From IMG/VR virus record IMGVR_UViG_3300032287_001394: 64,000 nucleotides of DNA. One strand, given 5' to 3'. Made by a program: the position numbers and the translations under genes. The notes below the pieces were generated by a model. The model was not told where the DNA came from. It saw nothing but the letters and a program-made list of their open reading frames with translations, and ran no database searches. Origin of the DNA: a virus. Shown here piece by piece: positions 11,203-56,015 of the stretch. Position 1 is the stretch's first letter. Each line of letters opens with the position of its first letter.

Positions 11203-11203
11203 A

Positions 11204-11242: not shown

Positions 11243-11262
11243 TGTTAATAAAGGAGAAACAT

Positions 11263-11406
11263 ATGTTAACAAACATTATCGTATTTTTAGTTGGTGCTCA
11301 TTTGGGTGCAAAATACCCACAAAAAGCAACACTAATCGTTGACACAGCTGTATCTTTTGCAAAAGCAGTATGGGCAAAAGTAACAGGATTAGTGGCTAAA
11401 AAATAA
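11263..11406 (+). CDS. 47-aa membrane peptide coupled to the endolysin (holin or lysis-regulator candidate)
   Basis: AAGGAGA SD; MLTNIIVFLVGAHLGAKYPQKATLIVDTAVSFAKAVWAKVTGLVAKK; TAATG overlap with the GH19 gene. Confidence 0.65.
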   Translation: MLTNIIVFLVGAHLGAKYPQKATLIVDTAVSFAKAVWAKVTGLVAKK

Positions 11407-12047
11407 TGGCATTCGAATTCGATTTTACTGAGCAAAAACTAGGCAAGATTCTCACGCGTAATAAGAACGTTCACGCGTGGTATGAAGCGATGGCTGTACA
11501 GTTACCTCAATTTGAAGTAACTACTGCAAAACGCGTTGCTGCTTTTGTAGCTCAGTGTGCTCATGAATCCGCGGACTTCACGACTCTACAAGAAAACTTA
11601 AACTACTCTGCTGACGCATTAAACAAACTATTTGGTAAGTATTTTGCTGCAGCTGGTAGAGATGCTGCTCCATATCATCGTAAACCTGAAATGATCGCTA
11701 ATGTAATATATGCGAATCGTATGGGTAACGGAGATACTGCAAGCGGTGACGGTTATAAGTTTAGAGGACGTGGTCCAATTCAATTAACAGGTAAGGCTAA
11801 CTATCAAGCGTTTGCTACAGACTTCTTTGAAGATCCTGAAACAGTGATAAATGATCCTGACCTCGTGACAGATGATGTACCAACTTCCTTATATTCAGCG
11901 CTTTGGTTTTGGAATAAAAACAAAATCAATAAGTATGCTGATGCAAGTGACATTAAAGGGATGACAAAGGTTATCAATGGTGGATATATTGGTTTAGAAG
12001 ACCGTATCAAACATTATAACCATGCAATCGAAGTCCTCGAAGCTTAA
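11406..12047 (+). CDS. Glycoside hydrolase family 19 endolysin
   Basis: AAFVAQCAHES, ENLNYS, YANRMGNG, GYKFRGRGPIQLTGK.NY, TKVINGG..GL.DR. Confidence 0.9.
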   Translation: MAFEFDFTEQKLGKILTRNKNVHAWYEAMAVQLPQFEVTTAKRVAAFVAQCAHESADFTTLQENLNYSADALNKLFGKYFAAAGRDAAPYHRKPEMIANVIYANRMGNGDTASGDGYKFRGRGPIQLTGKANYQAFATDFFEDPETVINDPDLVTDDVPTSLYSALWFWNKNKINKYADASDIKGMTKVINGGYIGLEDRIKHYNHAIEVLEA

Positions 12048-14064: not shown

Positions 14065-14753
14065 TCGTGGCACAACTTGCAAATGAAAATCCAGCTAATA
14101 TATTTAGCGGACTACTTAATAATGTACATATCAATACGATCGAGTCTGTATATAGAACTCATGAAGTATTTCTTGATCAAGAGATAGAGGACCCTAGTAA
14201 GTATCGAGAGCTAGTCTCTCTGCTTATCAATGCATCCGAGAATGACAAGATCCACCTGTTTATCAATTCCCCAGGTGGTAACCTTGATTCTGCCGGAGCA
14301 ATCATATCAGGCATCCTCTCGTCTCAGGCAGAAGTGACTGCATTCCTAATGGGTGCATGTCACTCTGCTGCCTCTCTAATCGCCATGTATTGCCATGCTG
14401 TCCATGTATATGATACTGCATACATCATGATCCATACGGCATCATTCGGCTCTGCCGGTAATACACCAACAGTCAAGGCTCACACAGATTTTACAGTCAA
14501 ACAGTGTGAGAAGCTATTGATTGATGCATACGAAGGTTTCTTAAGCAAGGCAGAACTTGATAAGGTATTGAACGGTCTTGAATTGTGGTTCAATGCAGAA
14601 GAGATCAAGCCTAGACTAAAGAAGAGGTTTGAAGCTGTACAATTACAAGATAAGAAAGCTGCTGAGAAACAAAATGAGATCGTGGATCAACCAAAGCCTG
14701 CCGCCAAGAAAGCTAAAGTAAAAGTTAAAGTTGAGGACGGCGCAATCGATTAG
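14061..14753 (+). CDS. ClpP-like serine protease
   Basis: LFINSPGG, GACHSAASLI (catalytic Ser), IMIH (His), WFNAEE. Confidence 0.85.
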   Translation: MIVAQLANENPANIFSGLLNNVHINTIESVYRTHEVFLDQEIEDPSKYRELVSLLINASENDKIHLFINSPGGNLDSAGAIISGILSSQAEVTAFLMGACHSAASLIAMYCHAVHVYDTAYIMIHTASFGSAGNTPTVKAHTDFTVKQCEKLLIDAYEGFLSKAELDKVLNGLELWFNAEEIKPRLKKRFEAVQLQDKKAAEKQNEIVDQPKPAAKKAKVKVKVEDGAID

Positions 14754-14756
14754 TTG

Positions 14757-14785
14757 TGTACATTAATTCTTTATTATGGTATAAT
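14757..14785 (+). promoter_or_regulatory. Early/middle promoter TGTACA-N17-TATAAT
   Basis: Recurring motif. Confidence 0.75.
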
Positions 14786-14810
14786 ATATTTTTAAATCAA
14801 GGAAAGTGAA

Positions 14811-15068
14811 ATGAACGTGGCTCAACATATAAATCACAGTTATCAAACTGGCAATAAGCAAGAACTTCTCAGAGTCAAAGGTGAACTAGATAAACAACTC
14901 AAAGAGCTTGATGTATTCTTTGAAGAGTATCTTGAAGTATTCGACGATCAACTTAATGCATCAGATAAATCTTCTCCAGTATGGAAAGCGTATAATGATA
15001 AGTATAAAGTTTATGAGAACCTTAAGCATAGTTTTAAGATGACAGATTATTATTTAGGCATGCTATAA
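14811..15068 (+). CDS. Hypothetical protein
   Basis: ORF with SD, coupled to gene 33. Confidence 0.65.
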   Translation: MNVAQHINHSYQTGNKQELLRVKGELDKQLKELDVFFEEYLEVFDDQLNASDKSSPVWKAYNDKYKVYENLKHSFKMTDYYLGML

Positions 15069-15295
15069 TGGAAGGCAAGATATTTAAGACTACGAATGAG
15101 TTTGCCTTGTTTATAGAAGAACTGGTATCACACAAGCGAATATCTCATATGGATGCAGTCTTATTGTATTGTGAAAAGAACTTCATAGATCCTGAAGACA
15201 TCAGCAAACTAATCAATAAAAACCTCAAACAAAAAATCGAACTTAATATGATTGAAGCTAATTATTTACCCAAAAAGGGTACTCTTGATATATGA
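15068..15295 (+). CDS. 33: Late transcription coactivator gp33
   Basis: FALFIEELV...MDAVLLYCEKNFID...LKQKIELN; order 33-59-32. Confidence 0.85.
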   Translation: MEGKIFKTTNEFALFIEELVSHKRISHMDAVLLYCEKNFIDPEDISKLINKNLKQKIELNMIEANYLPKKGTLDI

Positions 15296-15897
15296 CAGGA
15301 TTTAAGGCATTTAGATACTATCTAGCCTTAAAGCTGCATTTCAACAATGATAAGTACAACGTATTTGAAAACAAAGGCAACATCAAGTACTCATATGAAA
15401 ACTTTAATTCTCGAAATGATAGGCATATATTTGAGAAGCTAGCCAGAAAGTTTGATACAGACAAGGACTTAATCCAATTCCTTGCGGCAAACTTTGCATA
15501 TGGTCATGACAACATGATATTTGCCATAGAAGAAGCTAACGAGTACTATCTCGAATGGCAAAAGAGAAAACAAAGTATTAGCCGTATATTTAAGGATGAC
15601 CTCAATACTATTGAGCTAGAATCTCAGAAGCATGCCTTATCTCTGGACCAAATAATTAATTTTACTTTAAATGAATATCCGAGTATAATTAAACTATACT
15701 TAGGAAAAAAGATAGCCATTGAGTCTGTATCAATACTTAATGACTTATTGGACTTTATACCCAAGTGGAAGCAGAACCAATCGGGCATGCTTATACTAGA
15801 GTCTGATATAAGAAAGATAGAAAAGCTTAAAGGGTTTGTTAAGTATGAGCAAGATAAAATTAAACCAATTTTTAACGAATTTATTGCAATCTTTTGA
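15292..15897 (+). CDS. 59: Helicase loader gp59
   Basis: YLALKLHF...FNSRNDRHIFEKLARK; synteny. Confidence 0.88.
   Translation: MTGFKAFRYYLALKLHFNNDKYNVFENKGNIKYSYENFNSRNDRHIFEKLARKFDTDKDLIQFLAANFAYGHDNMIFAIEEANEYYLEWQKRKQSISRIFKDDLNTIELESQKHALSLDQIINFTLNEYPSIIKLYLGKKIAIESVSILNDLLDFIPKWKQNQSGMLILESDIRKIEKLKGFVKYEQDKIKPIFNEFIAIF
15661..15689 (+). promoter_or_regulatory. Promoter TTTACT-N17-TATAAT inside gene 59, probably driving gene 32
   Basis: Recurring motif; a late TATAAATA also lies at 15907-15914. Confidence 0.6.
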
Positions 15898-15973
15898 TGT
15901 GGGTTGTATAAATAAAAATGAGTAGCAGTTATACTCTATACACATTTAATACTAAAAATATAAGGAAAATACG

Positions 15974-44913: not shown

Positions 44914-44922
44914 GGATATTAA

Positions 44923-46023
44923 ATGGCAAGCTTAACACTACGAAGCATTAAAGGATCTCCTCTAACACTGGCAGAGGTAGATGCAAATTTTACTGCATTA
45001 AACACTGAACTTGGAGAAAAAGTAGCTACTACATCATACACCGCAGCAGATGTGCTTTCAAAACTATTAACTGTTGATGGAGCAAGTTCCGGTTTAGATG
45101 CGGACTTTGTTGACGGTTTAAGTCCATCTGCAACAAATGCTGGTAATAGTTTAGTATCTAGGAATTCTTCAGGTAACTTTGCAGCAGGTACTATTACTGC
45201 AACACTAACTGGAAATGTAACAGGTAACTTAACTGGCAACGTAACAGGAAACTTAACTGGTAATGTAACAGGCAATACTAGTGGTTCAGCTGGTACTCTT
45301 GCTAATACAAGAACTATTAGTATAACTGGTGATGGTTCATGGACTACATCATTTGATGGATCAGCAAATGTAACCGGTGCTTTTACACTAACAACTAGCG
45401 GTGTAGCTGCTGGAACATATACTAAGATTACTGTCGATGCTAAAGGCAGAGCTACTGTTGGTGCATCATTGAGCGGAACAGATGTTACTACAGCTTTAGG
45501 TTATACTCCATGGCATTCAGGTAATGATGGATCTGGATCTGGATTAGATGCAGACTTATTAGACGGATATAACTCAGCTACTGCTGCTACGGTATCTACT
45601 GTAGCTGTGCGAGATGGTTTTGGCGACTTAACGGCAAATGTATTTAAAGGCACAGCAACTTCTGCAAGATATGCAGACTTAGCAGAAAAATATACTACAG
45701 ATAAAGAATACTCGGTTGGTACTGTCATTGTCATCTCTGATAAAGAAGATTCTGAATGCACAGCATCAGACTATATAGGACAACATGCTATAGGAGTTAT
45801 ATCAGAGAATCCAGCATTCTTAATGAATTCAGAATCATCTGGTCAAGCAGTTGCTATCAAAGGAAGAGTGCCTGTTAGAGTAATTGGTCCAATCAGAAAA
45901 GGTGAATCTGTTTGTGCAGCTACTAATGGTCAAGCTATATTAGGTCAAGTTAATGCAATTGCTGTCGCATTAAAGACAGATTTAACACATGAAGAAAAAT
46001 TAGTGGAGTGCTTTATATTATAA
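44923..46023 (+). CDS. Tail fibre protein with C-terminal ADLAE chaperone-like domain
   Basis: N-terminus paralogous to the 43735 gene; ATSARYADLAEKY...GVISENPAFLMN...GRVPVRV. Confidence 0.75.
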   Translation: MASLTLRSIKGSPLTLAEVDANFTALNTELGEKVATTSYTAADVLSKLLTVDGASSGLDADFVDGLSPSATNAGNSLVSRNSSGNFAAGTITATLTGNVTGNLTGNVTGNLTGNVTGNTSGSAGTLANTRTISITGDGSWTTSFDGSANVTGAFTLTTSGVAAGTYTKITVDAKGRATVGASLSGTDVTTALGYTPWHSGNDGSGSGLDADLLDGYNSATAATVSTVAVRDGFGDLTANVFKGTATSARYADLAEKYTTDKEYSVGTVIVISDKEDSECTASDYIGQHAIGVISENPAFLMNSESSGQAVAIKGRVPVRVIGPIRKGESVCAATNGQAILGQVNAIAVALKTDLTHEEKLVECFIL

Positions 46024-46523
46024 CACTTAATGAAGTTGTTGAATTTATTCACAACCCTTTGTCATATAAGCAACATTTAGTTTCAATAATAAATGACAGG
46101 GGGATACAAATCCCCCTTAATCATTCTAGCGAGCTGTATGAGGATAAGCCTAAGACTATTAAGGTCGAAGGGATGGAACGATATTCTAAAGTAATTTGGG
46201 ATAAGTGCTGTGAATTTGCAGATGAATATAATCATCATGGTCCTGTGACATGTCATGCATTTATAGCTCAAGCAAACTCCCCATCTTTTGATATGCATAC
46301 TGATCCAGATGATGTCATCATAGTATGCTGTGAAGGTAAGAAAACCATGATGGTGAATGGCACATATATAGTATTAGAGGCTGGAGAACATGTTTATATC
46401 CCAGTTAATACTCCACACCAAGCATTAAATGAATATGCAGCACTAACGTTAAGCTTTGGTTTAGAAAACTATTTGAAGGATAAATCTCGTAATGAATTGG
46501 ATGTTTTACCTAAAGACGACTGA
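46008..46523 (+). CDS. JmjC/Cupin_4-like Fe(II)/2OG oxygenase
   Basis: SFDMHTDPDDVIIVCCEGKK (HxD) ... LEAGEHVYIPVNTPHQA (distal His). Confidence 0.78.
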   Translation: MLYIITLNEVVEFIHNPLSYKQHLVSIINDRGIQIPLNHSSELYEDKPKTIKVEGMERYSKVIWDKCCEFADEYNHHGPVTCHAFIAQANSPSFDMHTDPDDVIIVCCEGKKTMMVNGTYIVLEAGEHVYIPVNTPHQALNEYAALTLSFGLENYLKDKSRNELDVLPKDD

Positions 46524-47532
46524 GACATGTAACTTAAATTGTCGCCATTGTTTTACTAATGGTATAAATGGTGCAAAGGTATATTGGGATCATAATAAAG
46601 TAATAGATTGGATTCATAGATTTTCCAATTATGCATCTAAAAGTGATACATTACATTGTGAATTTCATGGAGGTGAACCATTCTTAGTGCCAGTATCCCA
46701 GATGTATGAGGTATGGGATAAGTGCAAGGCTTTGTTTACTAATTCCAGTTGGGGTGCAACAACCAATTTGGTATTTAAATTATATCAAGAACATATAGAT
46801 TTAATAAAAGGTCCATTTAACGGTAGAATTGGAACTTCATGGGATCCAAAGATAAGGTTTGATAATAAGAAACAAATAGATCTTTGGCGCAATAATGTAA
46901 AGACACTGTTGTCTGAAGGCATAACAGTAAGATTGTTTATAAGTGTCACAAAAGATACTATAGCTATAGACCCAATAGTTTTATTAAGATGGATAAGAAG
47001 ATTGGGAGTTCAAGAGGTATCATTTGAACGATTGACTAATAACGGAAGCGCTAAGAAGTTTCCAGAGATATTTCCATTTAATAAAGATCAAGATGCATGG
47101 TTTTTAAAAATGCACCAACAATCTGAAAAATATGGTGCCAGACATTGGTTTGAGAATGATTTTTTAGAAACAATTTATTCTAAGTTTGAAACTGGTTTTA
47201 CTAAAGGTGGTACATTTTGTAGGGATTGTGAAGAAAAGATTTTCACATTAAATGCTGATGGAACCATTTCAGGTTGTCCAAATTCAGCACCAGAATTTCA
47301 ATTTGGCCACATAGATGACGATATAAATAACCTTATAAATAGTCCTATACGCCTAGAAAATATGGCGTGTGAGAGGTCTAGAAACCCATTATGTTATTCT
47401 TGTGATGTGTTTCAATATTGCGGTGGTGATTGTCACCAGTTATCTTGGCAAGATGAGATATGCGGGGCTCCCAAAAGTTTAATGAGAGAGCTTTCTAAGA
47501 AAAAGAAGATATTTTCTATAATACATGTATAG
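46492..47532 (+). CDS. Radical SAM/SPASM enzyme 1
   Basis: CNLNCRHC, FHGGEP; C-terminal CRDC...GTISGC...CYSC...CGGDC...C. Confidence 0.92.
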   Translation: MNWMFYLKTTETCNLNCRHCFTNGINGAKVYWDHNKVIDWIHRFSNYASKSDTLHCEFHGGEPFLVPVSQMYEVWDKCKALFTNSSWGATTNLVFKLYQEHIDLIKGPFNGRIGTSWDPKIRFDNKKQIDLWRNNVKTLLSEGITVRLFISVTKDTIAIDPIVLLRWIRRLGVQEVSFERLTNNGSAKKFPEIFPFNKDQDAWFLKMHQQSEKYGARHWFENDFLETIYSKFETGFTKGGTFCRDCEEKIFTLNADGTISGCPNSAPEFQFGHIDDDINNLINSPIRLENMACERSRNPLCYSCDVFQYCGGDCHQLSWQDEICGAPKSLMRELSKKKKIFSIIHV

Positions 47533-47550
47533 ATAGATAAAGAGGATTTT

Positions 47551-48078
47551 ATGGCAACAGTTGGCACCGTAGTAACAAAACAGAATATCATTGATGATTT
47601 TGTTAGTGCTGTAATGGTCCCAGAACAAACTAGGACCAGATGGCACGCAACTAATAGACCTACGTATATTGCAGACGTATTAGTTGACGCGAGTGTTGGT
47701 ATGGCCAATCCTATCGCATCAAACTTTACAGAAGCAATTACAGCAAGTAACATTGTGTCAGTGCTTAGAGACTATGCTTATGGTACTACGAGAGTAAGAT
47801 TAGTTAGAGCTGGAATTTACTACGAATTTCCGGCTGGTCCTGGTACAATAGATGAACAAGTTGCTTACGCTCACTTAAATGATACCTATTTAAGAACAAA
47901 TCCATTAAGTGTTTCAGGTCCAGTTGTTAATGATATCATTACTGCAGATCCATTAAATACCTTTTATACTTCATTAAGATTAGCATCTAACACAGATACT
48001 TACGGAGATATCATAGATCTTCGAATTTGCCACTCATCATGTCATTCAGCATGTCATAGTTCTAGAGGAAGAAGATAA
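47551..48078 (+). CDS. Putative modification substrate with C-terminal CHSSCHSACHSSRGRR
   Basis: AGAGGA SD; Cys-free 159-aa body followed by a triple CHSx repeat; lies among radical SAM genes. Confidence 0.7.
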   Translation: MATVGTVVTKQNIIDDFVSAVMVPEQTRTRWHATNRPTYIADVLVDASVGMANPIASNFTEAITASNIVSVLRDYAYGTTRVRLVRAGIYYEFPAGPGTIDEQVAYAHLNDTYLRTNPLSVSGPVVNDIITADPLNTFYTSLRLASNTDTYGDIIDLRICHSSCHSACHSSRGRR

Positions 48079-49124
48079 TGTTTCATTTATTTAACTCAGT
48101 TTATTTACATTTTGATTTTAATTTTGAACCGGCTGGAAAAGACTTTATATTAGCATCAGATATTTATGGCAACAAGCCAATGATAACGGTGCAAAATAAT
48201 GAAGTTTATCAATCTCAACCATCATTTGAAGATTTAATTAAGTATCCATTTAACGGTGACGAAGAAAATTTCTGGACTAATTTAATTGCTCGTAATAAGA
48301 AAGTTGTGGTATATGTTAATCCATCTCAACTTTATAAGTTGCAAACTAAGTATTTAAAGAGCATCTTTAAACATGCATCTATTCAAGATTTACATAGAAT
48401 TCATGTCTCATTTGTTGAAAGTACTAGATTAAGATCTTACTTTGAAGCTTCCACTGGGCCAGATATACGTAAACATAAAACACTTACTACTATTAATCCA
48501 TTATCATTAGAACAATTTGAAGAATTATATAATTCAACAGAAGTTTCTAAAGCCTTACAGAGCTTAGATAAAACCACATTATCATTCGAATATCTTTTAG
48601 CTGATTATGTTTATAACAAAAATAGCCAATATAAATCAGCCCTATTAGCTAAAAGTGAGGTAATGATTTGGGATAATTGGTTCAATGAACTTGAATATTT
48701 ACGTTATGAAACTATATTTGGTTCATTAGATCTTAATAAATTAGACCCTAATATTGAATTAGGTATTGGTACAATTGAAGAAGCACTTGCACAAAGTGAA
48801 TTACTAAAGTGGATTGTTGATCCAGACTTTGCATATAACAGAGAATATATTAAAACTAATTATGATTATAAAACATTTAGTTCACTGTGGGATAAAATTT
48901 ATAGTTTATATGGCGTGTCTGAAGATATGTCAGAGACAAATGAATTAATTAATACCGACATGTATGAAGAATTATTAAATCGTGATATTAATCGCGGATT
49001 TGGTTGCACTTATACAGGTGAAATGTTTAAAGAAAAAGCCAATCACGTGTTTGCATCATATTGCTATAATATTGCACGCACAAATGATACATCATCGCTA
49101 GCTCCATATAGATTGACTTCTTAA
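48078..49124 (+). CDS. Hypothetical protein (radical SAM cluster)
   Basis: 348-aa ORF coupled by TAATG to the substrate candidate. Confidence 0.7.
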   Translation: MFHLFNSVYLHFDFNFEPAGKDFILASDIYGNKPMITVQNNEVYQSQPSFEDLIKYPFNGDEENFWTNLIARNKKVVVYVNPSQLYKLQTKYLKSIFKHASIQDLHRIHVSFVESTRLRSYFEASTGPDIRKHKTLTTINPLSLEQFEELYNSTEVSKALQSLDKTTLSFEYLLADYVYNKNSQYKSALLAKSEVMIWDNWFNELEYLRYETIFGSLDLNKLDPNIELGIGTIEEALAQSELLKWIVDPDFAYNREYIKTNYDYKTFSSLWDKIYSLYGVSEDMSETNELINTDMYEELLNRDINRGFGCTYTGEMFKEKANHVFASYCYNIARTNDTSSLAPYRLTS

Positions 49125-49152
49125 TATTATTAGGTGAAGTGTTTATTATACT

Positions 49153-50277
49153 ATGAATATATTTAGTAATGAATTTAATGTTATTTATTTAAGAGTCGTA
49201 CAAGGGTGCAATTTAAACTGCACTCATTGTTTTACTCTTGGTAATAAAGATCCTTATATGGTTACTGACCTTAACTATATTGAGGATTTTTTGTCATCTA
49301 TAAAAGATAACGTCGACCCTCAAAAAGCTACATTTTATATACATGGTGGAGAAACTTTTCTTGCGCCATATTCACATTTAGCTGACGTTAATAAAATAAT
49401 CAGATCTAAGTTTGGTACTAAGAGGATAGACATAATTCCTCAAACAAATCTATTGTATACTATAGATGATGAGTTTATTAATTTTGTAAAGACCGAGTAC
49501 CGATCAACCATTGGTGTTTCTTGGGATGCTGACATTAGGTTTGGATCTATTGCAATTAATAAGAAGACTGATCAAGAAAACCTATTCTTTAGCAATTTAA
49601 AACAACTTCTTGCCAATGATATAAAAGTTCATATAGCAATTACTGCTCAAAAGCATTTGTTAAACTACGATCCTCTTGAGATTGTAAAAATGTTTGATGG
49701 AGTTGATTCAATTGACTTTGAATTATTAACTACATTTGATGAGAAAACTAGAAACTTAAAACCTAATAATAAAAAATGGGCTATATGGTTAGAGAAGTTA
49801 GTAGATTATTATCAGTATAATAAAACTACTTGGTGCTTACCACAAATAGATCTTTTTACAAAGGCGTTAATTACAGGTAATTTATTCGACTGTAAGTGTA
49901 ATTGTTGTGATAAACGCACTTTTACTTTAAATCCAAATGGTACTGTTGGGTTATGTCCAGATAAAACTTATGTTGAACCATTTTCAACTACTACTGAAAT
50001 GAAACAAGATTGGGCTACATTCCAAAATAAATCACTCGATGTAATAATGAAAAAGTTAGTTGAAATGGATCAACATACTATGTGTTTTGAATGTGAACAT
50101 TATGACATATGTGGCGGTAATTGTGATGCAAGTTTGTTTGATGATTCCGATGAATGTCCATTATCTAAAAGTGTTATAAGTAAGATTAGAAATAATAAAG
50201 AAGTTTTTATAAAACTGTATGAAGATAAAGCTAAAAACAATTTAACTGAATTAAGGAATGATTATGACATACATTGA
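49153..50277 (+). CDS. Radical SAM/SPASM enzyme 2
   Basis: CNLNCTHC, IHGGET; CKCNCC...GTVGLC...CFEC...CGGNC...C. Confidence 0.92.
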   Translation: MNIFSNEFNVIYLRVVQGCNLNCTHCFTLGNKDPYMVTDLNYIEDFLSSIKDNVDPQKATFYIHGGETFLAPYSHLADVNKIIRSKFGTKRIDIIPQTNLLYTIDDEFINFVKTEYRSTIGVSWDADIRFGSIAINKKTDQENLFFSNLKQLLANDIKVHIAITAQKHLLNYDPLEIVKMFDGVDSIDFELLTTFDEKTRNLKPNNKKWAIWLEKLVDYYQYNKTTWCLPQIDLFTKALITGNLFDCKCNCCDKRTFTLNPNGTVGLCPDKTYVEPFSTTTEMKQDWATFQNKSLDVIMKKLVEMDQHTMCFECEHYDICGGNCDASLFDDSDECPLSKSVISKIRNNKEVFIKLYEDKAKNNLTELRNDYDIH

Positions 50278-50980
50278 TACAATTGCCCCTATTCCAATTG
50301 ACTGTATTAAAGAATATTTTAAAGATAAAAATATAATGTTTTTAATTGACTATGAAAATAGTAAACTTGAAAACAAAGTCTTTTTGACGTATTTGTCAAA
50401 CCTTGACGTTCCTTGTGACATTAAATTAGATTCTTTAAGCACAGAAAAGAAGTTGGCTTTATTAGAAGCATATTTAAATATTAAAAATATTACCAATGTT
50501 CCTGCTTTGAACATCATGATGGCGCAAATCATTTTACATATGATTGGATCAGATCCATCAATGTTGTTTAAAACACTATCTCTTACACCTGAAGAGTGCG
50601 ATACATTCATAGAAAAAAATAAATTAGAGATTGAAAGATGGTTGATCTTCTTAGATTCAACTATGGTTTTCTTAATCTATTCTTATAAAGATTTAAATGA
50701 GAAAATTAAAGTAGAAGAAACTTTCCCTATCATTGACGATGAAAACTTTGTTGGTTTAAACGTTATTAATCTATTAAAGATTCCTGCATTCTTAGAACTT
50801 TACTTTGCCGCAGATAAACCAGTAGCACTATACTACTTTAAACGTCACTTTGAAGTATACATGTTTAAGGGCAAATCATTCTTTGAGTATTATAATAACG
50901 AGTGTAATGCATTCATTCCATTACTTAAACAATTAATTTCAAAAGAATTACCATTAACTCCTCCAAATTTCGAGGTTTAA
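50264..50980 (+). CDS. Hypothetical protein (radical SAM cluster)
   Basis: ORF overlapping the upstream stop; no recognised motif. Confidence 0.7.
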   Translation: MTYIDTIAPIPIDCIKEYFKDKNIMFLIDYENSKLENKVFLTYLSNLDVPCDIKLDSLSTEKKLALLEAYLNIKNITNVPALNIMMAQIILHMIGSDPSMLFKTLSLTPEECDTFIEKNKLEIERWLIFLDSTMVFLIYSYKDLNEKIKVEETFPIIDDENFVGLNVINLLKIPAFLELYFAADKPVALYYFKRHFEVYMFKGKSFFEYYNNECNAFIPLLKQLISKELPLTPPNFEV

Positions 50981-50981
50981 T

Positions 50982-52085
50982 ATGGATGCATATTTAACTT
51001 CAGGTAATCTGAACGAATCTAATTCTTATTATTTCAACCTTAATTTTGAATTTTTAAATGGATGTCAATTTAGTTGTAAAGGTTGTCATGTAAACAAGAA
51101 TGGTTCTGCGCCTATTAATGATGAAAGTTATCTTCAGCTTATGAAGATTATGAATTCATTTACACCTGAAAATTCATATAAACCATTCATTGCCTTTATT
51201 GCTCCAACAGATTTTCTATCTGCAACTAATACGTATTCAGTTTTAACAGATAAACGTATTATTGAAATCCTTAATAAGTTTAAAAGAATATCTCTCCAAA
51301 CTACGTATCTTAATATGGATAAGGCGAGTCTTATTGCTGATGTATTAAAAGAACACTATAGTAATATGGAATTAGAAATCAATGTTATCATAGAACCAGA
51401 AAAGATTGAGAATGAAAAGTATTTAAGCATTCTTAAAAAACATCAAGATAAAATGATTGATCTTTTAGATTGGCCTATACCAGTAAGATCATTTGGTATT
51501 ATGAATGTATTTGATTATGATTCTACTAAACTTGCAGAGATATTAAAAGATTACGACCATTTACATAAGAAAGTTCAACATCTATTTCAAACTACTATTG
51601 ATTTTAATTTTTCTTTAGGTAGAAAAGACGAAAACTTAACACACGAAGAATTTAAAAGTGCGACCAATAGAATTAAAACTATGTTCAATAGTTCTGTTGT
51701 TTCTGGTGAGAAAAGCGGCTACCTTAGATTTTCATTTGGTAAACTAAATGATTCTCTAATTGAACGACAATATAACTGGAAGAACGGCGAGTTTTATTAT
51801 TCACCTCTCCTTTATGAACGATATGTTTCTTTTATTGATGGATTAAAAATGAACATAGAAGACTATAGTGCAAAAGAATTTGAAAAGTTTGAAGAAGACG
51901 TTCAATTACAGCAATACCTGAATGTATCGAATAAAACTGAATGTGAAGATTGCATTATGTTAGGATCTTGTGTTGATCGTGGTATCTTACATCTAATGGA
52001 TGTTCATGGAGTTAAAGATTGTTTAGTTGCTAAAGATGCAATGCTAACAGTCAATAATCTAAAAATTTCAGGCCATCCTGCATGA
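50982..52085 (+). CDS. Radical SAM-like enzyme 3 (divergent)
   Basis: CQFSCKGC; no clear GGE motif; C-terminal CEDC..LGSC...C. Confidence 0.75.
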   Translation: MDAYLTSGNLNESNSYYFNLNFEFLNGCQFSCKGCHVNKNGSAPINDESYLQLMKIMNSFTPENSYKPFIAFIAPTDFLSATNTYSVLTDKRIIEILNKFKRISLQTTYLNMDKASLIADVLKEHYSNMELEINVIIEPEKIENEKYLSILKKHQDKMIDLLDWPIPVRSFGIMNVFDYDSTKLAEILKDYDHLHKKVQHLFQTTIDFNFSLGRKDENLTHEEFKSATNRIKTMFNSSVVSGEKSGYLRFSFGKLNDSLIERQYNWKNGEFYYSPLLYERYVSFIDGLKMNIEDYSAKEFEKFEEDVQLQQYLNVSNKTECEDCIMLGSCVDRGILHLMDVHGVKDCLVAKDAMLTVNNLKISGHPA

Positions 52086-53143
52086 GTGAATTCTTAAGAC
52101 ATGTTTTAAAAGATAAAATGCCAGACTCAACTGAGATTGAGCTGCATCTATTTGAGTTCTGTAACTTAAGCTGTGCTTTCTGTGGACAAGATCACGACTC
52201 TACAGAAGGTATGAACACTATTGAGGAAAAAGCTTTACAAGTTACAGACTTTATGAAAAAGTCTAATATGAATAGCCATATCGTTAATATTATGGGTGGG
52301 GAAATATTCAATGATTTAGTACCAGACGATACGTTTGAAAGCTATATAAAATTTTATAACATTATCAATTCTTGGTGTGACGACAATAATCATACAGTAA
52401 GATTTAATTGGGTTACTAACTTAATATTCTTAAAAATACAACGTATAAAAGACTTCATTAATACATTAAGAGCTATTAAACCTAATTCATATATTTCAAC
52501 TTCATATGACTTTGCTGGTCGCGGATTGAATTTAAATCGAACGTTACAATTTGAACACAACATTAAAAGCTTTAAAGATATTATTACAGTAGTTGGATTT
52601 GTATTAACTAAACAAGCAATTAAAAGGATACTAACTAAGACTGACAAATTCTTTAAAGATTATCTTTATGAGAACTATACCCTATACTTTGATTATTATG
52701 TTCCAGAAGCAAATGCAGAAAAAATGATGCCAACTGAGCACGAAATGTTGGATTGCATGTTATTCATTGCTAAGAATTACCCTGAGATTTATCCAATAAA
52801 AGATCTTATTGTTAATGAACGAAATAAGATGACTTGTTATTCCATGAATAAGACGACAATCCTTCCAAGCGGAAGAGAAGTCACATGTCGTTACATGGAT
52901 TATGATCCTATCACTTTCATAAATAAGATTGACTATAAATCAAACAGTAATATTATCCAATCGCATTTAGATAGAAACCAATGTTTATCATGTAAATGGT
53001 TTGATCGTTGTCAGTTTAGATGTTTTGTTCAAGCCGATTGGGCAAAACTAGAAAGAACACACGACTGTCTATTTAGAGAGTTCTTCAATAGAATGGAAAG
53101 TGAGAATCTATTACAATATGGATCTAATAATAAAACCGACTGA
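52082..53143 (+). CDS. Radical SAM enzyme 4
   Basis: CNLSCAFC, IMGGE; C-terminal CLSCKWFDRCQFRC...C. Confidence 0.88.
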   Translation: MSEFLRHVLKDKMPDSTEIELHLFEFCNLSCAFCGQDHDSTEGMNTIEEKALQVTDFMKKSNMNSHIVNIMGGEIFNDLVPDDTFESYIKFYNIINSWCDDNNHTVRFNWVTNLIFLKIQRIKDFINTLRAIKPNSYISTSYDFAGRGLNLNRTLQFEHNIKSFKDIITVVGFVLTKQAIKRILTKTDKFFKDYLYENYTLYFDYYVPEANAEKMMPTEHEMLDCMLFIAKNYPEIYPIKDLIVNERNKMTCYSMNKTTILPSGREVTCRYMDYDPITFINKIDYKSNSNIIQSHLDRNQCLSCKWFDRCQFRCFVQADWAKLERTHDCLFREFFNRMESENLLQYGSNNKTD

Positions 53144-54191
53144 GAAGTGCAACTTTAAATGCACATTCTGTTCTAGTACATATATCACTGAAGATAAAAC
53201 TGCCGAGTTAGATCATCAGTATATCTTTGACTTCTTAAAGAGGTTCCCGGAAACTAAGACAATTATAGTCAATGGTGGCGATCCATTGATGATGGAACCT
53301 GAATACTATTGGAAGATTATAGAACATTTAGATGAAATAGGTTCTGATGCTACCATATCATTTACTACTAACTTATGGCCGTTCTATAAGAATCCTAATA
53401 GATGGAAAGAGCTCTTTAATCATTCAAGATTAGGTATAACTACATCATTCCAATATGGAGGAGGTAGGCTTAAAGGCGACTTGACAGAGTTTAGTGAAGA
53501 AGACTTTTGGAAGTGTTCAGATGCTATGTTAGAGCATTGTGGATATAGACCAGACTTTATTGCAGTTATTACTGAAGAGAATGAGCATGACGCTATAAAA
53601 AACGTCGAATTAGCTAAGAAGATGGGTGTAGAGTGTAAACTTAATTATGCATTCTCATCAGGACCGCCAGTCAAGTTTAAGAATATAATCATGGGTCAAG
53701 AAGGTAAGCCATACTTGTTAGCGGACATATATGAGATATATGTTGAGATATGGAAAAGAGGTTTGACTGAATGGGAATATAATACTAAACAAATGGTTAA
53801 ACGTCTAAAGGGTGAAGGTACTACATGTCCACAGAATAGGGATTGTGATAGCGGCATTAGGACTTTACAACCATCTGGAGACTACTACTCTTGTGGTGCA
53901 TTTGGAGATGATAGACAGTATCCAATAGACTTTAACAAAGAAATGACTGGTGAAAAGATACATCCTATTAAGTTTCAATCTGAACTGCAGAGTTTAAAAC
54001 AATCATGCTATATTTGTCCTATGTTTGAAATATGTAATGGATGTAAGAAGACTATAACAGACCTTAAGAATTATAACTTAGTTGAAGAGCATTGTTATAA
54101 GATGAAGCAACTTGCTCCTGATATAATCAAAGCCAATGGATTAAATTTAGAACCCACTCCGTATGAGAGGGAATATGATTATATCAATTAA
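53118..54191 (+). CDS. Radical SAM/SPASM enzyme 5
   Basis: IIKPTEKCNFKCTFC, NGGDP; CPQNRDC...GDYYSC...CYIC...CNGC...C. Confidence 0.92.
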   Translation: MDLIIKPTEKCNFKCTFCSSTYITEDKTAELDHQYIFDFLKRFPETKTIIVNGGDPLMMEPEYYWKIIEHLDEIGSDATISFTTNLWPFYKNPNRWKELFNHSRLGITTSFQYGGGRLKGDLTEFSEEDFWKCSDAMLEHCGYRPDFIAVITEENEHDAIKNVELAKKMGVECKLNYAFSSGPPVKFKNIIMGQEGKPYLLADIYEIYVEIWKRGLTEWEYNTKQMVKRLKGEGTTCPQNRDCDSGIRTLQPSGDYYSCGAFGDDRQYPIDFNKEMTGEKIHPIKFQSELQSLKQSCYICPMFEICNGCKKTITDLKNYNLVEEHCYKMKQLAPDIIKANGLNLEPTPYEREYDYIN

Positions 54192-55113
54192 TCCATGGTA
54201 TTATTGTAACTTTAAGTGTGACTTCTGTTACTTAACTAAAGAACAATTAGACGACAAGACTCTATTAGATTTAAGAGTATTAGAAAAAAGACTTGATGAA
54301 GTCATGTCTATTGATGAGATTGGTGGGATAGATTTATATGGCGGTGAAATAGGATTACTACCTGAAGATTATGTAGAAGAATTATGTGCTATAGTTAAAT
54401 CGCGAGGCATTGATGATATAAACATAATCACTAATCTAAGTATGGTCAATAGAGTTATAACCAACCCAGATTTATATGTATCTGTTAGCTATGACTTTGA
54501 ATGTAGAGAACAACATGATCGTGTATGGGACAATATGTTTGCTCTTAATAATCCATTTTCTATATTAATCTTAGCCAGTAAAGATCTAATAAATAAAGAT
54601 GTAGGTGAGATGATATCTCAGTTAAACCTATTAAGTAACTTAAGTTCTGTAGAGATTAAACCGTATAGCATAAATCAAGCAAATTGCCACTCGGTCAGCC
54701 ATAAAGACTTTGAGTTATTTGTACAAAAATGGTTGGATAATGATATACAAATGAGGTTTGAGTTTGTCAATGAAAACAATATTCAAGCGACTTTGGATGG
54801 GTCTCGTAATGCATTCAGTAATGACCATGTGTATATTACTCCAACTGGACAATTTGCAGTCCTTGAGTTTGACCTAAATGATAAAGAATACTTTAAGACT
54901 TTGGACTCAATACAAGATTATAAAGATTGGGCATTAAATGAACCTAATAAGAACGTAAGTGATATATGTAAGTCATGTGACTATTATGGTAGATGTTTAA
55001 CAGAGCATTATCGATATGTTAAAGATTTGGATAATGGATGTAATGGATATAAAGGACTAATTGATTGGTATAAACATGGAAGATTGGAAGATAAGACAAG
55101 AGCTCTATCATAG
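54175..55113 (+). CDS. Radical SAM enzyme 6
   Basis: CNFKCDFC, LYGGE; C-terminal CKSCDYYGRC...GC. Confidence 0.88.
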   Translation: MIISINPWYYCNFKCDFCYLTKEQLDDKTLLDLRVLEKRLDEVMSIDEIGGIDLYGGEIGLLPEDYVEELCAIVKSRGIDDINIITNLSMVNRVITNPDLYVSVSYDFECREQHDRVWDNMFALNNPFSILILASKDLINKDVGEMISQLNLLSNLSSVEIKPYSINQANCHSVSHKDFELFVQKWLDNDIQMRFEFVNENNIQATLDGSRNAFSNDHVYITPTGQFAVLEFDLNDKEYFKTLDSIQDYKDWALNEPNKNVSDICKSCDYYGRCLTEHYRYVKDLDNGCNGYKGLIDWYKHGRLEDKTRALS

Positions 55114-55480
55114 ACTAAACACTGTCCATGATGATGACTTAAATGATAAGAATATAGAGATCACTGACAATATAGTGGCGGATGCTGTTAGGTATTTTAC
55201 CGAAAAAGACATAGGATGGATCTATCCATCTAAAAGTTATATGGTTGCTATATGTTATGCTAAATGGCTTTCTGAAGAGTTTGGCGGCAATCCTATAGAC
55301 TATTTAAATGATATAGATTTACTATTTGGCAATGACCCATATTTCATAATATATGATGAAGATGCTGTTACATATAACCAGATATTAGACCGTATAGGCG
55401 AATGGAAGTTTGATCAAACTAAAGGAATGGTTCCTGATGTTAAGAAGTATTTTATAGAGGAATTTATGATAGATGTTTAA
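55076..55480 (+). CDS. Hypothetical protein (end of radical SAM cluster)
   Basis: ORF overlapping enzyme 6. Confidence 0.65.
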   Translation: MEDWKIRQELYHRLNTVHDDDLNDKNIEITDNIVADAVRYFTEKDIGWIYPSKSYMVAICYAKWLSEEFGGNPIDYLNDIDLLFGNDPYFIIYDEDAVTYNQILDRIGEWKFDQTKGMVPDVKKYFIEEFMIDV

Positions 55481-55535
55481 GACTTTTACACCCCGGTCTA
55501 TAGAACCTAACTCAATCCTATTATAAATAATAGAT

Positions 55536-55676
55536 ATGGCAGCTATAACAAATTTCTACATAGACACTGGATCCACTTTTGGGGCAGTAATTACAGTCAA
55601 AGGATCTGACGGTCTACCGTTAAACTTGACTGGATTCACAGTAACATCATATATGGACTTTAATTATTATAAATAG
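55536..55676 (+). pseudogene. Truncated paralogue of the 55680 gene
   Basis: MAAITNFYIDTGSTFGAVITVKGSDGLPLNLTGFTV matches the N-terminus of the next gene, then diverges and stops; has its own TATAAATA at 55522-55529. Confidence 0.8.
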
Positions 55677-55679
55677 TAA

Positions 55680-56015
55680 ATGGCTGCGATAACAAATTTA
55701 TATGTAGACGCTGGATCAACTTTTAGCGCTATTATTTCGTGTAAAGGATCAGATGGGGTTCCATTAAACCTTACAGGATATACAGTTGCAGCACAGATTA
55801 GAAAATCTTATGCGTCAACAACAGCTTATAGTTTGAATGCTACCATATATTCAACTACAGCAGGTAAAATAAGAATAGCACTTTCACACACCGAGTCATC
55901 AGCTATAAAAGCTGGAAGATATATGTATGATATTGAGATAACTTCTGGATCAGGAGAGAGAAAAAGGGTGTCTGAAGGTATAGTAATAGTAACACCAGAG
56001 ATTACAAAGATTTAA
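55680..56015 (+). CDS. Virion-associated protein (BppU-N-like adaptor)
   Basis: PLNLTGYTVAAQIRKSY...GRYMYDIEI...EGIVIVTP; TATAAATA at 55668-55675. Confidence 0.7.
   Translation: MAAITNLYVDAGSTFSAIISCKGSDGVPLNLTGYTVAAQIRKSYASTTAYSLNATIYSTTAGKIRIALSHTESSAIKAGRYMYDIEITSGSGERKRVSEGIVIVTPEITKI

Follow-up and report, generated by a model that had tools for sequence, protein, structure and literature searches.

Closest described systems

Several rSAM-SPASM maturases are well characterised: anSME converts a sulfatase Cys or Ser to formylglycine, QhpD introduces thioethers into QhpC, PapB and SCIFF represent the ranthipeptides, and YhhB and XyeB are triceptide cyclophane synthases. In the bacterial HXS antiphage system, the effector HxsA is matured by the radical SAM enzymes (rSAMs) HxsB and HxsC with HxsD (Li et al., Nat Commun 2026, PMC13128918). 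Multi-rSAM regions have been described in marine T4-like viral genomes and linked to Fe-S metabolism (Nishimura et al. 2017, PMC5332604), and the genome papers of the jumbo phages FLC6 and S13 list orthologous cupin, rSAM and 2OG oxygenase genes (PMC8066314, PMC11898562). These regions are the same kind of gene block as the cassette analysed here, but in the three papers the genes are listed or tied to Fe-S metabolism, with the tail protein, substrate and function unmentioned. Our literature search likewise found no published function or description of the cassette, in line with the initial annotation, which knew of no assigned function for this architecture.

The window, i.e. the whole 64,000-nucleotide stretch analysed, is marine T4-like phage DNA in which the cassette is placed behind tail-fibre genes. 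Judged from sequence comparison, the cassette probably modifies a virus-particle protein chemically, and HXS is its closest published analogue, although the HxsB model scores only 24.9 bits (cut-off 370) and the HxsC model 30.8 bits (cut-off 267.9). As proposed, the cassette resembles HXS in that several rSAMs mature a protein rather than a short peptide, the modified site lies within a His-x-Ser-type repeat with basic surroundings, one rSAM is partnered by a small helper protein, and the system acts at the phage-cell interface. Unlike HXS, a bacterial defence with a peptidoglycan-binding periplasmic effector, the cassette is phage-encoded, its tail protein (g03) has no Pfam peptidoglycan-binding domain, and it has invariant Cys, a C-H-x-x repeat, a terminal RGRR, and four to nine rSAMs plus oxygenases where HXS has two rSAMs.

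With the rSAM-SPASM maturases, the cassette enzymes share the N-terminal CxxxCxxC, the C-terminal 7-Cys SPASM, a length of about 350 aa without an RRE domain, weak full-length profile matches and a periodic Cys-rich substrate. The C-x3-C spacing of the tail is presumably that of SCIFF, and H-x-S is a motif that we take to be a possible three-residue cyclophane site. However, the cassette enzymes reach only 5-15% of the family cut-offs, the proposed target is the C-terminal tail of a folded protein associated with the virion, and four core rSAMs with a JmjC cupin have no counterpart in the anSME, QhpD, PapB/SCIFF and YhhB/XyeB systems.

An eleven-gene block among tail-fibre genes

The 11 tightly coupled genes of the initial annotation were all located by an ORF check, on the + strand at 46008-55480, with overlaps or gaps of at most 28 nt between neighbours (Table 1). 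The block consists of one JmjC-type cupin, six proteins with an N-terminal CxxxCxxC, three unknowns and one tail protein. As had been claimed, the three unknowns (g04, g06 and g11) could be assigned to no family in Pfam or NCBIfam, and profile searches against both collections found no match to transporter, peptidase, nucleotide or cofactor pathway families in the block, which agrees with their noted absence.

Table 1. Coordinates and predicted nature of the cassette features in the window.
Feature	Coordinates	Strand	Description
g01	46008..46523	+	171-aa JmjC-type cupin; core
g02	46492..47532	+	346-aa radical SAM/SPASM enzyme; core, constant block
g03	47551..48078	+	175-aa; predicted compact folded body (1-159) and flexible C-terminal tail; proposed cassette substrate
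g03 tail	48028..48075	+	C-H-S-S-C-H-S-A-C-H-S-S-R-G-R-R, then stop codon
g04	48078..49124	+	348-aa, unknown family (phrog_36207); accessory, variable module
g05	49153..50277	+	374-aa radical SAM/SPASM, g02 paralogue; accessory, variable module
g06	50258..50980	+	240-aa, unknown family (phrog_20767); core
g07	50982..52085	+	367-aa radical-SAM-like protein (phrog_31457); accessory, variable module
g08	52082..53143	+	353-aa radical SAM/SPASM; core, yet part of variable module
g09	53100..54191	+	363-aa radical SAM/SPASM; core, constant block; the cassette's most conserved gene
g10	54163..55113	+	316-aa radical SAM enzyme; core, constant block
g11	55061..55480	+	139-aa, unknown family (phrog_20737, E 1.4e-53); core, constant block

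Upstream of the block lie a DUF4815 giant protein and two fibre-like proteins, and downstream a 111-aa fibre-assembly-like protein, a 776-aa fibre-like protein and a collagen-repeat protein, which bears out its described setting between fibre genes. T4-like relatives typically have the cassette in this position, but there are exceptions: one cassette (L095) is located among small non-structural genes, and Bdellovibrio-like genomes carry chromosomal copies. We counted both against the proposed function.

T4-type late-promoter motifs were found at 37941, 55522, 55668 and 60089, and the scan of the window found none directly before g01. The GTG start of g01 overlaps the 3' end of the upstream fibre gene (44923-46023), which follows the late promoter at 37941. 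With this overlap and no late promoter of its own, the cluster would be expressed late.

The HxD...H cupin of the initial annotation was recovered in g01, which passes the cut-off of PF08007 JmjC_2 (35.4 bits, cut-off 22), matches Cupin_2 at 29.7 bits, and keeps H97-x-D99...H137 and K112 at least 95% conserved in 61 orthologues. It is a probable Fe(II)/2OG oxygenase. Of 94 loci, many of them truncated, 70 contain it. The placing of an O2-dependent cupin beside O2-sensitive rSAMs is a further point that we counted against the proposal.

Six radical SAM proteins, four of them core

CxxxCxxC lies within the first 35 residues of g02, g05, g07, g08, g09 and g10, and no other ORF of at least 150 aa in the window carries it, so the six proteins claimed are the sole carriers among these ORFs. 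Only g09 (41.1 bits) and g10 (31.0 bits) reached the gathering score of Pfam Radical_SAM; g02, g05 and g08 gave sub-cut-off matches and g07 a marginal one (E 0.052). SPASM-like C-termini had been ascribed to most of the six. This stands for g02, g05 and g08, which have the full spacing CX2CX5CX3C...C, and for g09 with the variant CX2CX5CX2C...C, but g07 and g10 have only the partial auxiliary motif CX2CX5C...C.

In g02 (C13xxxC17xxC20; further Cys at 243, 246, 262, 301, 304, 310, 314 and 324), SPASM TIGR04085 scored 32.6 bits (cut-off 27), together with weak full-length PapB, DynA and anSME matches. Its paralogue g05 (C19xxxC23xxC26) matched YhhB (56.6 bits), anSME (48.4) and DynA (46.4) over the full length, all under the cut-offs. 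The motifs of the others are C27xxxC31xxC34 with SPASM Cys 301, 304, 310, 314 and 329 in g08, C28xxxC32xxC35 with auxiliary Cys 321, 324, 330 and 347 in g07, and C15xxxC19xxC22 with auxiliary Cys 269, 272, 278 and 293 in g10. In the PDB, a g09 profile picked up nothing beyond the rSAM core of MoaA.

An alternative is that the enzymes act on DNA, a nucleotide or a cofactor, as do QueE, viperin or MoaA-type rSAMs, and that the tail protein is incidental. Indeed, g08, g09 and g10 show weak N-terminal matches to viperin, MoaA, NrdG and QueE, and DHFR genes are inserted in the RSF1 cluster. However, the viperin, QueE, NrdG and MoaA models match the shared N-terminal cluster-binding region only, whereas g02, g05 and g09 have their best NCBIfam matches (PapB, YhhB, DynA and anSME) over the full length, with QhpD-type maturases also among the weak full-length matches of cassette enzymes. 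These matches support the maturase type first suggested, for which a grouping with QueE, NrdG or MoaA had been named as counter-evidence. The DHFR/HNH insertion is limited to the RSF1 group, the window block has no nucleotide-pathway gene, and the strict linkage to an invariant peptide tail is left unaccounted for, making this alternative extremely improbable. All NCBIfam matches, to maturases as well as to QueE, NrdG and MoaA, are far under family cut-offs; therefore, the chemistry is not transferable from those families.

A folded protein with an invariant C-terminal tail

The 47551 protein has the C-terminus CHSSCHSACHSSRGRR, exactly the ending first reported for it, and this tail is the only CH..CH match in the six frames of the window. 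In 46 homologues (alignment A1), C160, H161, C164, H165, C168, H169, R172, G173, R174 and R175 are invariant, while mean column identity in the body is about 29%. S163 and S171 are at least 90% conserved, giving H-x-S in repeats 1 and 3. At the nucleotide level, the 104 tails from the loci fall into 87 distinct sequences, in which each of the two Cys, two His and six Arg codons is used; therefore, it is the protein that is conserved.

AF2 modeled g03 with a pLDDT of 90.2, the tail starting at 65 and dropping to 48, so the body is confidently predicted as an independent fold with a floppy tail. Structure searches with the model found no known fold. In relatives, bodies range from 125 to 517 aa, and some are fused to a fibre-type domain, as in P0111, where the glycine-rich fibre-type domain PF21722 is joined to body and tail.

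A cassette recurring in over a hundred phages

Homologues of the tail protein with the same ending number 92 in metagenomic databases; IMG/VR contributes 142 loci, and the protein also occurs in the isolated jumbo phages RSF1/RSL2, FLC6/8, Atu_ph07, Phosso and DT01; the cassette recurs in over a hundred phages. The same rSAM set accompanied the tail protein in all of about 95 loci examined, as expected of the dedicated conserved system first claimed. Clusters lacking a CHxx-tail protein, which had been named as grounds for refutation, were absent from these loci; since the tail protein was present in every locus, the claim is not refuted on this point. The core set is the cupin g01, rSAM g02, tail protein g03, g06, the rSAMs g08, g09 and g10, and g11, and the order g01-g02-g03-g06-g08-g09-g10-g11 is common to RSF1, Atu_ph07, DT01 and about 90 metagenomic loci. 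The six-rSAM set thus holds for the window, but g05 and g07 are lineage-specific extras: true g05 orthologues (53-95% identity) are limited to about 10 loci, and g07 has orthologues in RSF1 and L005 (44-47% identity) and is distantly homologous to DT01 genes annotated radical SAM. Orthologues of g04 are confined to RSF1-type and Bdellovibrio-type loci and to some marine ones.

The tail might instead belong to an HXS-like phage effector, whose basic His-x-Ser tail, once matured, would attach to DNA or the envelope for superinfection exclusion or delivery of the phage's own genome. Bacterial HXS rSAMs mature a protein effector at an S-H-x-S-S motif, and basic HxS repeats in this effector bind DNA and keep phage DNA out of the cell (PMC13128918). 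The H-x-S repeats with an RGRR end fit this idea, as does the occurrence of copies in phages and Bdellovibrio-like bacteria, both breachers of the Gram-negative envelope. Against it stand the low HxsB and HxsC scores, the lack of a Pfam peptidoglycan-binding domain in g03, Cys residues that are invariant but outside the HxS motif, and g09 being found in only 2 of 151 sampled genomes of the bacterial order of the Bdellovibrio-like copies. We regard such an effector as quite unlikely.

Constant enzymes and a swappable module

Identities across loci correlate within {g01, g02, g09, g10, g11} (0.54-0.81) and within {g03, g06, g08} (0.28-0.73), and between the two blocks from -0.39 to 0.46. In the first block, g09 is 55-94% identical in most loci, unrelated jumbo phages included, with about 120 invariant columns in 29 sequences; its single outlier (40%, L012) is the locus with a variant tail. 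g10 is 44-93% identical between loci, g02, directly upstream of the tail protein in all loci, 35-93%, and g11 (66 of 94 loci) varies in step with g01, g09 and g10 (r 0.68-0.80). In the second block, g08 identity is bimodal, at 50-96% (window type) or about 30% (others), and correlates with g06 (r 0.73) and g03 (r 0.53). g06 was found in 83 of 94 loci, in most of which it starts a few bases from the g03 stop codon and is translationally coupled to the tail protein; its AF2 model (pLDDT 93.9) resembles no known fold, the top hits being Foldseek E 0.13 and VIA Z 4.8, the latter over residues 1-60 only.

Two sister phages (L045 and L032) match the window at 84-87% DNA identity on either side of a gap from 47558 to 53117; inside this gap nothing aligns, and they carry a replacement module with a B12-rSAM and 2OG oxygenases. 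By this comparison, the g03-g08 stretch is a swappable module.

Such variable, natural-product-like tailoring genes, which in relatives also include a halogenase-type flavoprotein, would suit a classical RiPP, in which the 159-residue body is a large leader and the 16-residue tail is modified, cleaved and freed at lysis as a bioactive peptide (signal, toxin or inhibitor). The precursor also adjoins rSAM-SPASM genes, and its C-terminal core is invariant while its N-terminal part varies. In RiPPs, however, the core is usually variable and the leader conserved, the reverse of the cassette. Moreover, the body is a confident globular fold of widely varying length, sometimes joined to a fibre-type domain, and neither a protease nor an exporter occurs in the block or its relatives. 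We consider a released peptide unlikely.

A tail-protein orthologue in virions

The claim that the modified protein is a virion component is supported by Atu_ph07 gp170, which is present in the purified-virion proteome with 8 unique peptides and 35% coverage (PMC6102473 Table S5), with the proviso that this is one distant orthologue in PEG-purified particles, where contaminants are possible. We confirmed gp170 as the g03 orthologue, 36.8% identical over the last 57 residues only. With a mass of 31.89 kDa, it peaks in gel band 1, the top one; other proteins of 29-34 kDa peak in bands 7-8. The neighbouring enzymes are absent from the virion list (PMC6102473 Table S5). A point against the claim is the RSF1 RefSeq record, in which ORF067 is annotated as a virion structural protein but the g03 orthologue ORF071 as hypothetical. 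The recovery of gp170 from virions also speaks against the released peptide.

It also bears on the idea that the three Cys and three His are a ligand set for a metal or Fe-S cluster, making g03 a metalloprotein, electron carrier, rSAM-serving scaffold or protein-derived redox cofactor site. Cys and His are invariant at a fixed 4-residue spacing, IscU/IscA-type genes adjoin the cassette in some relatives (L006), and Fe-S assembly genes accompany many rSAM genes in T4-like marine viral genomes (Nishimura et al., PMC5332604). Yet the protein is in virions from which the enzymes are absent, the tail is predicted to be flexible at the extreme C-terminus, the invariant RGRR would be superfluous for a metal site, and an electron carrier needs no fast-evolving body swapped with g06 and g08. 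A metal-binding role therefore seems distinctly improbable.

Proposed function

The functional evidence for the cassette is all comparative. The reading we favour, and hold to be moderately probable, is that this widespread, unpublished phage cassette modifies the invariant 16-residue tail (C-H-x-x)x3-R-G-R-R of g03, a protein that then becomes part of the virion. The constant enzymes (rSAM-SPASM g02 and g09, rSAM g10, cupin g01 and helper g11) would act on the constant tail, and the swappable module (the g03 body, g06 and g08, joined in the window by g04, g05 and g07) may serve body recognition or lineage-specific tailoring. By analogy with rSAM-SPASM maturases, the chemistry would likely be radical H-abstraction, leading to thioether or C-C links at Cys, His or Ser, or to Cys oxidation, and the JmjC cupin may add a hydroxylation. 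The product would probably belong to the fibre/baseplate region, as a component that is covalently stabilised or crosslinked.

An 11-gene cassette combines radical SAM enzymes with a Cys-His-tailed protein

The cassette (genes g01 to g11) consists of 11 open reading frames (ORFs) separated by gaps or overlaps of at most 28 nt. The initial annotation had described the block accurately: the 11 ORFs, their motifs and the tail were all recovered, and, as it had claimed, no match in the block to transporter, peptidase, or nucleotide or cofactor pathway families was found in Pfam or NCBIfam. Six genes (g02, g05, g07, g08, g09 and g10) encode radical SAM proteins with CxxxCxxC in the first 35 residues, and no ORF of at least 150 aa elsewhere in the 64-kb window carries this motif. 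The features are located in the table below.

Coordinates of features in the window and in related loci
Feature	Sequence	Coordinates	Strand	Description
Cassette, g01 to g11	Window	46008-55480	+	11 ORFs
Cupin gene g01	Window	46008	+	171 aa, GTG start
Tail protein gene g03	Window	47551-48078	+	175 aa, ends CHSSCHSACHSSRGRR
Fibre gene upstream of g01	Window	44923-46023		3' end overlapped by g01
Pair of late promoter motifs	Window	47322-47341		3' part of g02
Repeated promoter and gene start	Window	55522-55700		Downstream edge of cassette
Antisense ORF	Window	44919-45275	-	118 aa
tRNA-Met (CAT) gene	Window	6953-7029		Single tRNA gene
Replaced segment	Window	47559-53116
Its counterpart	L045	10009-16542
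Fe-S assembly genes	L006	17822-18509		NifU/IscU-type and IscA-type
Halogenase/monooxygenase-type gene	L096	9670-11193		Flavin-dependent
g10 orthologue	L002 (Atu_ph07)	11089-11976		Annotated CDS gp164 starts at 11281
HNH endonuclease and two DHFR genes	L001 (RSF1)	14639-15928		Between g08 and g09 orthologues
Variant tail protein	L012	10001-10591		CHSSCHSNCHHR in place of ...RGRR

The phage is a T4-like myovirus with a gp5-type hub carrying lysozyme and with baseplate wedge proteins, one of them of the gp6 type. This gp6 shares about 41% identity with gp6 of Pelagibacter and Methylophilales myophages. Also encoded in the window are a giant DUF4815 protein and several fibre-like ones. A T4-type late promoter motif, TATAAATA, precedes structural genes at 37941, 55522, 55668 and 60089, and none was found in the window directly before g01. 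Because g01 lacks such a motif of its own and overlaps the end of a fibre gene, the cassette is probably transcribed late, together with the fibre genes.

About 215 nt ahead of g03, within g02, two copies of the motif overlap; they might serve as an internal late promoter from which the tail protein gene is transcribed, or might be there by chance in AT-rich DNA. Downstream of g11, the motif and the first codons of a 111-aa fibre-assembly-like gene are present twice, with ATGGCAGCTATAACAAATTT following the motif at 55522 and ATGGCTGCGATAACAAATTT following that at 55668. The copy at 55522 heads a short ORF only, and the arrangement suggests that a promoter, together with the 5' end of a gene, was partly duplicated. 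The antisense ORF, whose PVTLPVKF repeats mirror the GNxTGN repeats of the + strand fibre gene, is almost certainly not a gene.

Selection maintains the tail peptide of g03

The last 16 residues of the g03 protein, three C-H-x-x repeats followed by R-G-R-R, contain the sole CH..CH string across all frames of the window. In the isolates RSF1, Atu_ph07 and DT01, the gene after the first radical SAM gene carries the same tail (VCHSSCHSSCHGSRGRR, ICHTSCHTSCHSARGRR, FCHSSCHASCHNSRSRR), and the C-terminal tryptic peptide of the Atu_ph07 protein is 30 residues long, ending CHSSCHASCHNSR. A database search yielded 92 g03 homologues, which, with two exceptions, have three Cys among their final 20 residues. 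Across an alignment of 46 homologues, with a mean column identity of 29%, residues C160, H161, C164, H165, C168, H169, R172, G173, R174 and R175 are invariant, with conservation of at least 90% at S163 and S171. The tail pattern was found in 142 IMG/VR viral contigs and in 7 contigs among 185,579 species genomes, with one tail-bearing ORF, or two in tandem, at each examined locus. Since 104 tails are encoded by 87 distinct nucleotide versions, in which both Cys, both His and all six Arg codons are used, selection acts on the tail peptide. Like the anSME substrate motif C/S-x-P/A-x-R, the third repeat (C168-H-S-S-R172) places Arg at +4; position +2 is variable (S, G, A, N), and none of the tails listed has Pro there. 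A variant tail occurs on L012, a 208-kb contig labelled uncultured Gemella sp., where the g09 relative shows an identity of only 40% and several paralogues resembling g02 are found close by.

The g03 body (residues 1-159) is too divergent for tblastn, which gave no match against the phage collection; orthologues in isolated phages were therefore located by synteny. AlphaFold2 with the family alignment predicted a compact body of long helices and a long beta-hairpin (pLDDT 90.2, pTM 0.83) and a low-confidence tail (65 falling to 48). No related fold was found for g03 with Foldseek against PDB (best E 0.41), a wide VIA-align search (best Z 4.1) or the ESM Atlas (TM at most 0.33), and BFVD returned orthologues only. 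The g06 protein, also confidently predicted (pLDDT 93.9), likewise had no recognizable structural relative, with a best Foldseek E of 0.13 and a best VIA Z of 4.8 over residues 1-60 only; an Atlas feature search with g06 and g11 yielded no usable result. A c-type haem CX3CH site in the tail was considered and rejected, because no haem-attachment genes were found, the protein is cytoplasmic, and haem attachment needs no radical SAM enzymes.

Affinities of the radical SAM enzymes and the cupin

For the radical SAM superfamily (PF04055) we took CxxxCxxC together with the Pfam gathering cut-off of 29.5 bits. This was passed by g09 (41.1 bits) and g10 (31.0 bits); g05 (25.7), g08 (21.7), g02 (20.8) and g07 (14.2) scored below it and show homology among themselves or with annotated radical SAM proteins. 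The SPASM model TIGR04085 (C-terminal 7-Cys pattern with CX2CX5CX3C, at least 27 bits) was passed by g02 only (32.6 bits), with g05 (26.2), g09 (23.3) and g08 (15.2) below. The SPASM-like C-termini attributed earlier to these enzymes were borne out for four of them, with the spacing CX2CX5CX3C...C in g02, g05 and g08 and the variant CX2CX5CX2C...C in g09; g07 and g10 have only a partial auxiliary motif, CX2CX5C...C.

In NCBIfam, g02, g05 and g09 matched best, over the full length, to the peptide or protein maturases PapB, YhhB, DynA, anSME and QhpD, with every score far under the cut-off. Against PapB (NF047865, cut-off 340 bits), g02 scored 46.1 bits over residues 7-316; against the triceptide synthases YhhB (NF041707, 445 bits) and XyeB (TIGR04496, 450 bits), g05 reached 56.6 and g02 29.4 bits, and g02 18.5 bits, respectively; against anSME (TIGR03942, 349 bits), g05, g09 and g02 scored 48.4, 39.5 and 34.3 bits. 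Grouping with QueE, NrdG or MoaA, which the initial annotation had named as evidence against its proposal, was not found. Matches to the MoaA, NrdG, QueE and viperin models were confined to the cluster-binding N-terminus, and the best scores (MoaA 30.2, NrdG2 23.7, QueE 21.4 bits) were far below the equivalog cut-offs for MoaA (284 bits), NrdG (131 bits) and QueE (260 bits). PADLOC likewise gave weak viperin-core matches only. The g09 family is under very tight constraint, and about 120 columns are invariant across 29 sequences. Searches of PDB with g02 and g09, by sequence and by profile, reached only the generic radical SAM core, which for the g09 profile was MoaA residues 15-114.

The cupin g01 belongs to JmjC_2 (PF08007, 35.4 bits, cut-off 22). 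Its metal triad H97-x-D99...H137 and K112 are each at least 95% conserved; K112, 13 residues after the Asp of the triad, occupies what we take to be the 2OG-binding position of FIH-type enzymes. The proteins g04, g06 and g11 matched PHROG families of unknown function and no family in Pfam or NCBIfam.

The cassette is widespread and contains a swappable module

With megablast, the block as a whole matched none of 50,697 phage records, and relatives were reached by protein-level searches only, not by DNA similarity. The same genes in the same order were found in isolated jumbo phages, namely RSF1 and RSL2 of Ralstonia, FLC6, FLC8 and S13 of Burkholderia, Atu_ph07 of Agrobacterium, Phosso of Sinorhizobium and pPa_SNUABM_DT01 of Pseudomonas. 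Overall, cassettes of 8-15 kb occur in more than 100 phages of unrelated lineages, comprising marine T4-like phages and jumbo phages that include the phiKZ-related RSL2/RSF1 group and the Rak2-like Atu_ph07. Across most carriers g09 is 55-94% identical, which indicates strong selection.

To define the core, we compared the 11 proteins with 94 loci by tblastn. The canonical order is g01-g02-g03-g06-g08-g09-g10-g11; true orthologues of g04, g05 and g07 are present in a minority only (RSF1-type, Bdellovibrio-type and some marine loci). Relative to the window, g09 averages 71% identity, g02 67%, g11 57%, g10 56% and g01 46%; g03, g06 and g08 average 30-34%. Identities correlate within the first group (g01, g02, g09, g10, g11; r 0.54-0.81) and within the second (g03, g06, g08; r 0.28-0.73), with r of -0.39 to 0.46 between them. 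The conservation of the cassette is split into two blocks.

Two sister phages, L045 and L032, share the window's fibre genes, and their DNA is 84-87% identical to it up to 47558 (the first g03 codons) and again from 53117 (the g09 start), with no DNA alignment between these two positions. Their replacement module encodes a 190-aa tail protein, a g06 relative, a 393-aa unknown protein, a g08 relative, a B12-binding radical SAM protein and two 2OG oxygenases. L045 has two more oxygenases after g11, four 2OG-Fe(II) oxygenases in all; unlike most relatives, the window cassette has none (PF13759/PF13640). This swappable g03-g08 module, with its exact boundaries, is new here. From the two-block conservation and the exchanged module, we infer that the constant enzymes would serve the constant tail, and that g06, g08 and the accessory genes would pair with the g03 body. 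In most loci g06 starts at the g03 stop codon; a complex prediction for g03 with g06 scored 0.00 and was counted neither for nor against pairing.

Several loci depart from this layout. In six IMG/VR loci (L084, L082, L085, L087, L090 and L076), two small tail proteins of about 125-135 aa are encoded in tandem immediately behind a giant ORF, which in L084, the only one of the group with ORFs listed, is 3,140 aa long. Four or five g07-like radical SAM genes come next, and g09-g10-g11 are on the opposite strand; g01, g02 and g06 were not detected in these loci. Fe-S assembly genes in L006 and a halogenase/monooxygenase-type gene in L096 are attached to the cassette. In the RSF1 group, the HNH/DHFR stretch looks like a mobile insertion outside the system. 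The deposited gp164 of Atu_ph07 is probably 5'-truncated and misses the CxxxCxxC motif, as alignment to g10 begins upstream of the annotated start.

The seven species-genome matches are mostly contigs of metagenome-assembled genomes (MAGs), and two are credibly cellular. L009, a 78-kb contig of a Bdellovibrionaceae MAG, has FabH and acyl-CoA ligase genes adjoining the cassette. G137 holds, on a 299-kb contig, a complete but rearranged cassette (tail PCHGSCHGSCHGSRGRR) flanked by ABC-transporter genes and by a protein with a pilin-type N-methylation motif and a Peptidase_S74 fibre-chaperone domain. For these two, the FabH, acyl-CoA ligase and ABC-transporter flanks speak against phage DNA binned into MAGs, which is the likely origin of L010 and L012 (contigs over 200 kb). 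With g09 in 2 of 151 sampled genomes of L009's bacterial order, the cassette in Bdellovibrio-like bacteria is sporadic and no lineage trait.

The tail protein of Atu_ph07 is virion-associated

Purified Atu_ph07 virions have been analyzed by ESI-MS/MS, and Table S5 of that study lists gp170 at 31.89 kDa, with 8 unique peptides and 35.16% coverage (PMC6102473). The computed mass of the tail-bearing protein is 31.89 kDa, and those of gp176 and gp177 likewise equal the table values, so the gene numbering is identical. In the same table, gp170 is spread over gel bands 1-9 with peak abundance in band 1, which holds proteins of about 75-140 kDa; most 29-34 kDa proteins peak in bands 7-8, and tail-fibre proteins migrate above their monomer mass (PMC6102473). 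The enzymes, cupin and g06 orthologue (gp164-169, gp171 and gp172) are absent from this virion table (PMC6102473). On the strength of the Table S5 listing and the band 1 peak, the Atu_ph07 tail protein is virion-associated and forms a high-mass species after boiling in SDS, in one experiment on a distant relative. Such migration fits an SDS-resistant oligomer or a covalent adduct. A further hint comes from the long members of the family, among them P0111, a 461-aa protein in the same enzyme context in which a glycine-rich domain (PF21722) is fused to the g03 body and tail; such a domain has been described in the literature at the tip of a cyanophage tail fibre.

A probable modification system for a virion-associated protein

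Taken together, we consider it fairly probable that the cassette modifies the tail of a virion-associated protein. The initial proposal of a dedicated modification system for a phage, probably virion, protein is well supported by the comparative data and one published proteome; it is narrowed in that only four of the six radical SAM enzymes belong to the core and the cassette does not always lie beside fibre genes (locus L095). The remaining probability is divided among a RiPP that is released, a site for a metal or cofactor, an effector of the HXS kind and a substrate other than protein.

The nearest published analogue is HXS, a bacterial defence system in which the protein HxsA is matured by HxsB and HxsC at an SHRSS motif and binds DNA through its basic HxS repeats (PMC13128918). 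The likeness is one of mode of action, not membership. Against TIGR03976-03979, HxsB matched g02 at 24.9 bits (cut-off 370) and HxsC matched g09 at 30.8 bits (cut-off 267.9), both N-terminally only. Unlike the HXS effector, g03 shows no PG-binding domain, nor any Pfam or NCBIfam domain, and its repeats have the form C-H-x-x, in which Ser is nearly invariant in the first and third alone. Genome papers list orthologous cupin, radical SAM and 2OG genes without comment (PMC8066314, PMC11898562), and Nishimura et al. reported T4-like marine viral genomes with up to 12 radical SAM genes, which they tied to Fe-S metabolism (PMC5332604). Literature searches on the motif, phage RiPPs and viral SPASM enzymes turned up no account of it as a system, and the tail motif string gave chance matches only.

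Returning to modification of a virion protein, a more specific and rather unlikely form is that the radical SAM enzymes make a covalent 'staple' of the Cys-His tail, joining g03 to itself or to a giant fibre or baseplate protein, and that Bdellovibrio-like predators use the same device on a pilus- or fibre-type structure. The staple would account for the 31.9-kDa Atu_ph07 orthologue peaking at the top of a denaturing gel.

Radical SAM maturation is familiar from RiPPs, which are secreted peptides, from a small number of enzymes (sulfatases, QhpC) and from one bacterial defence effector (HxsA); to our knowledge, enzymatic radical chemistry on a viral structural protein has not been described. 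Five isolated phage groups with culturable hosts carry the cassette, and one virion proteome already includes the tail protein. An invariant 16-residue tag with dedicated enzymes could give new peptide chemistry or a protein-tagging tool. The staple, if true, would amount to a crosslink between proteins of a virus particle that is made by enzymes and is not a disulfide and, if shared with Bdellovibrio-like predators, a common tool for attacking Gram-negative envelopes.
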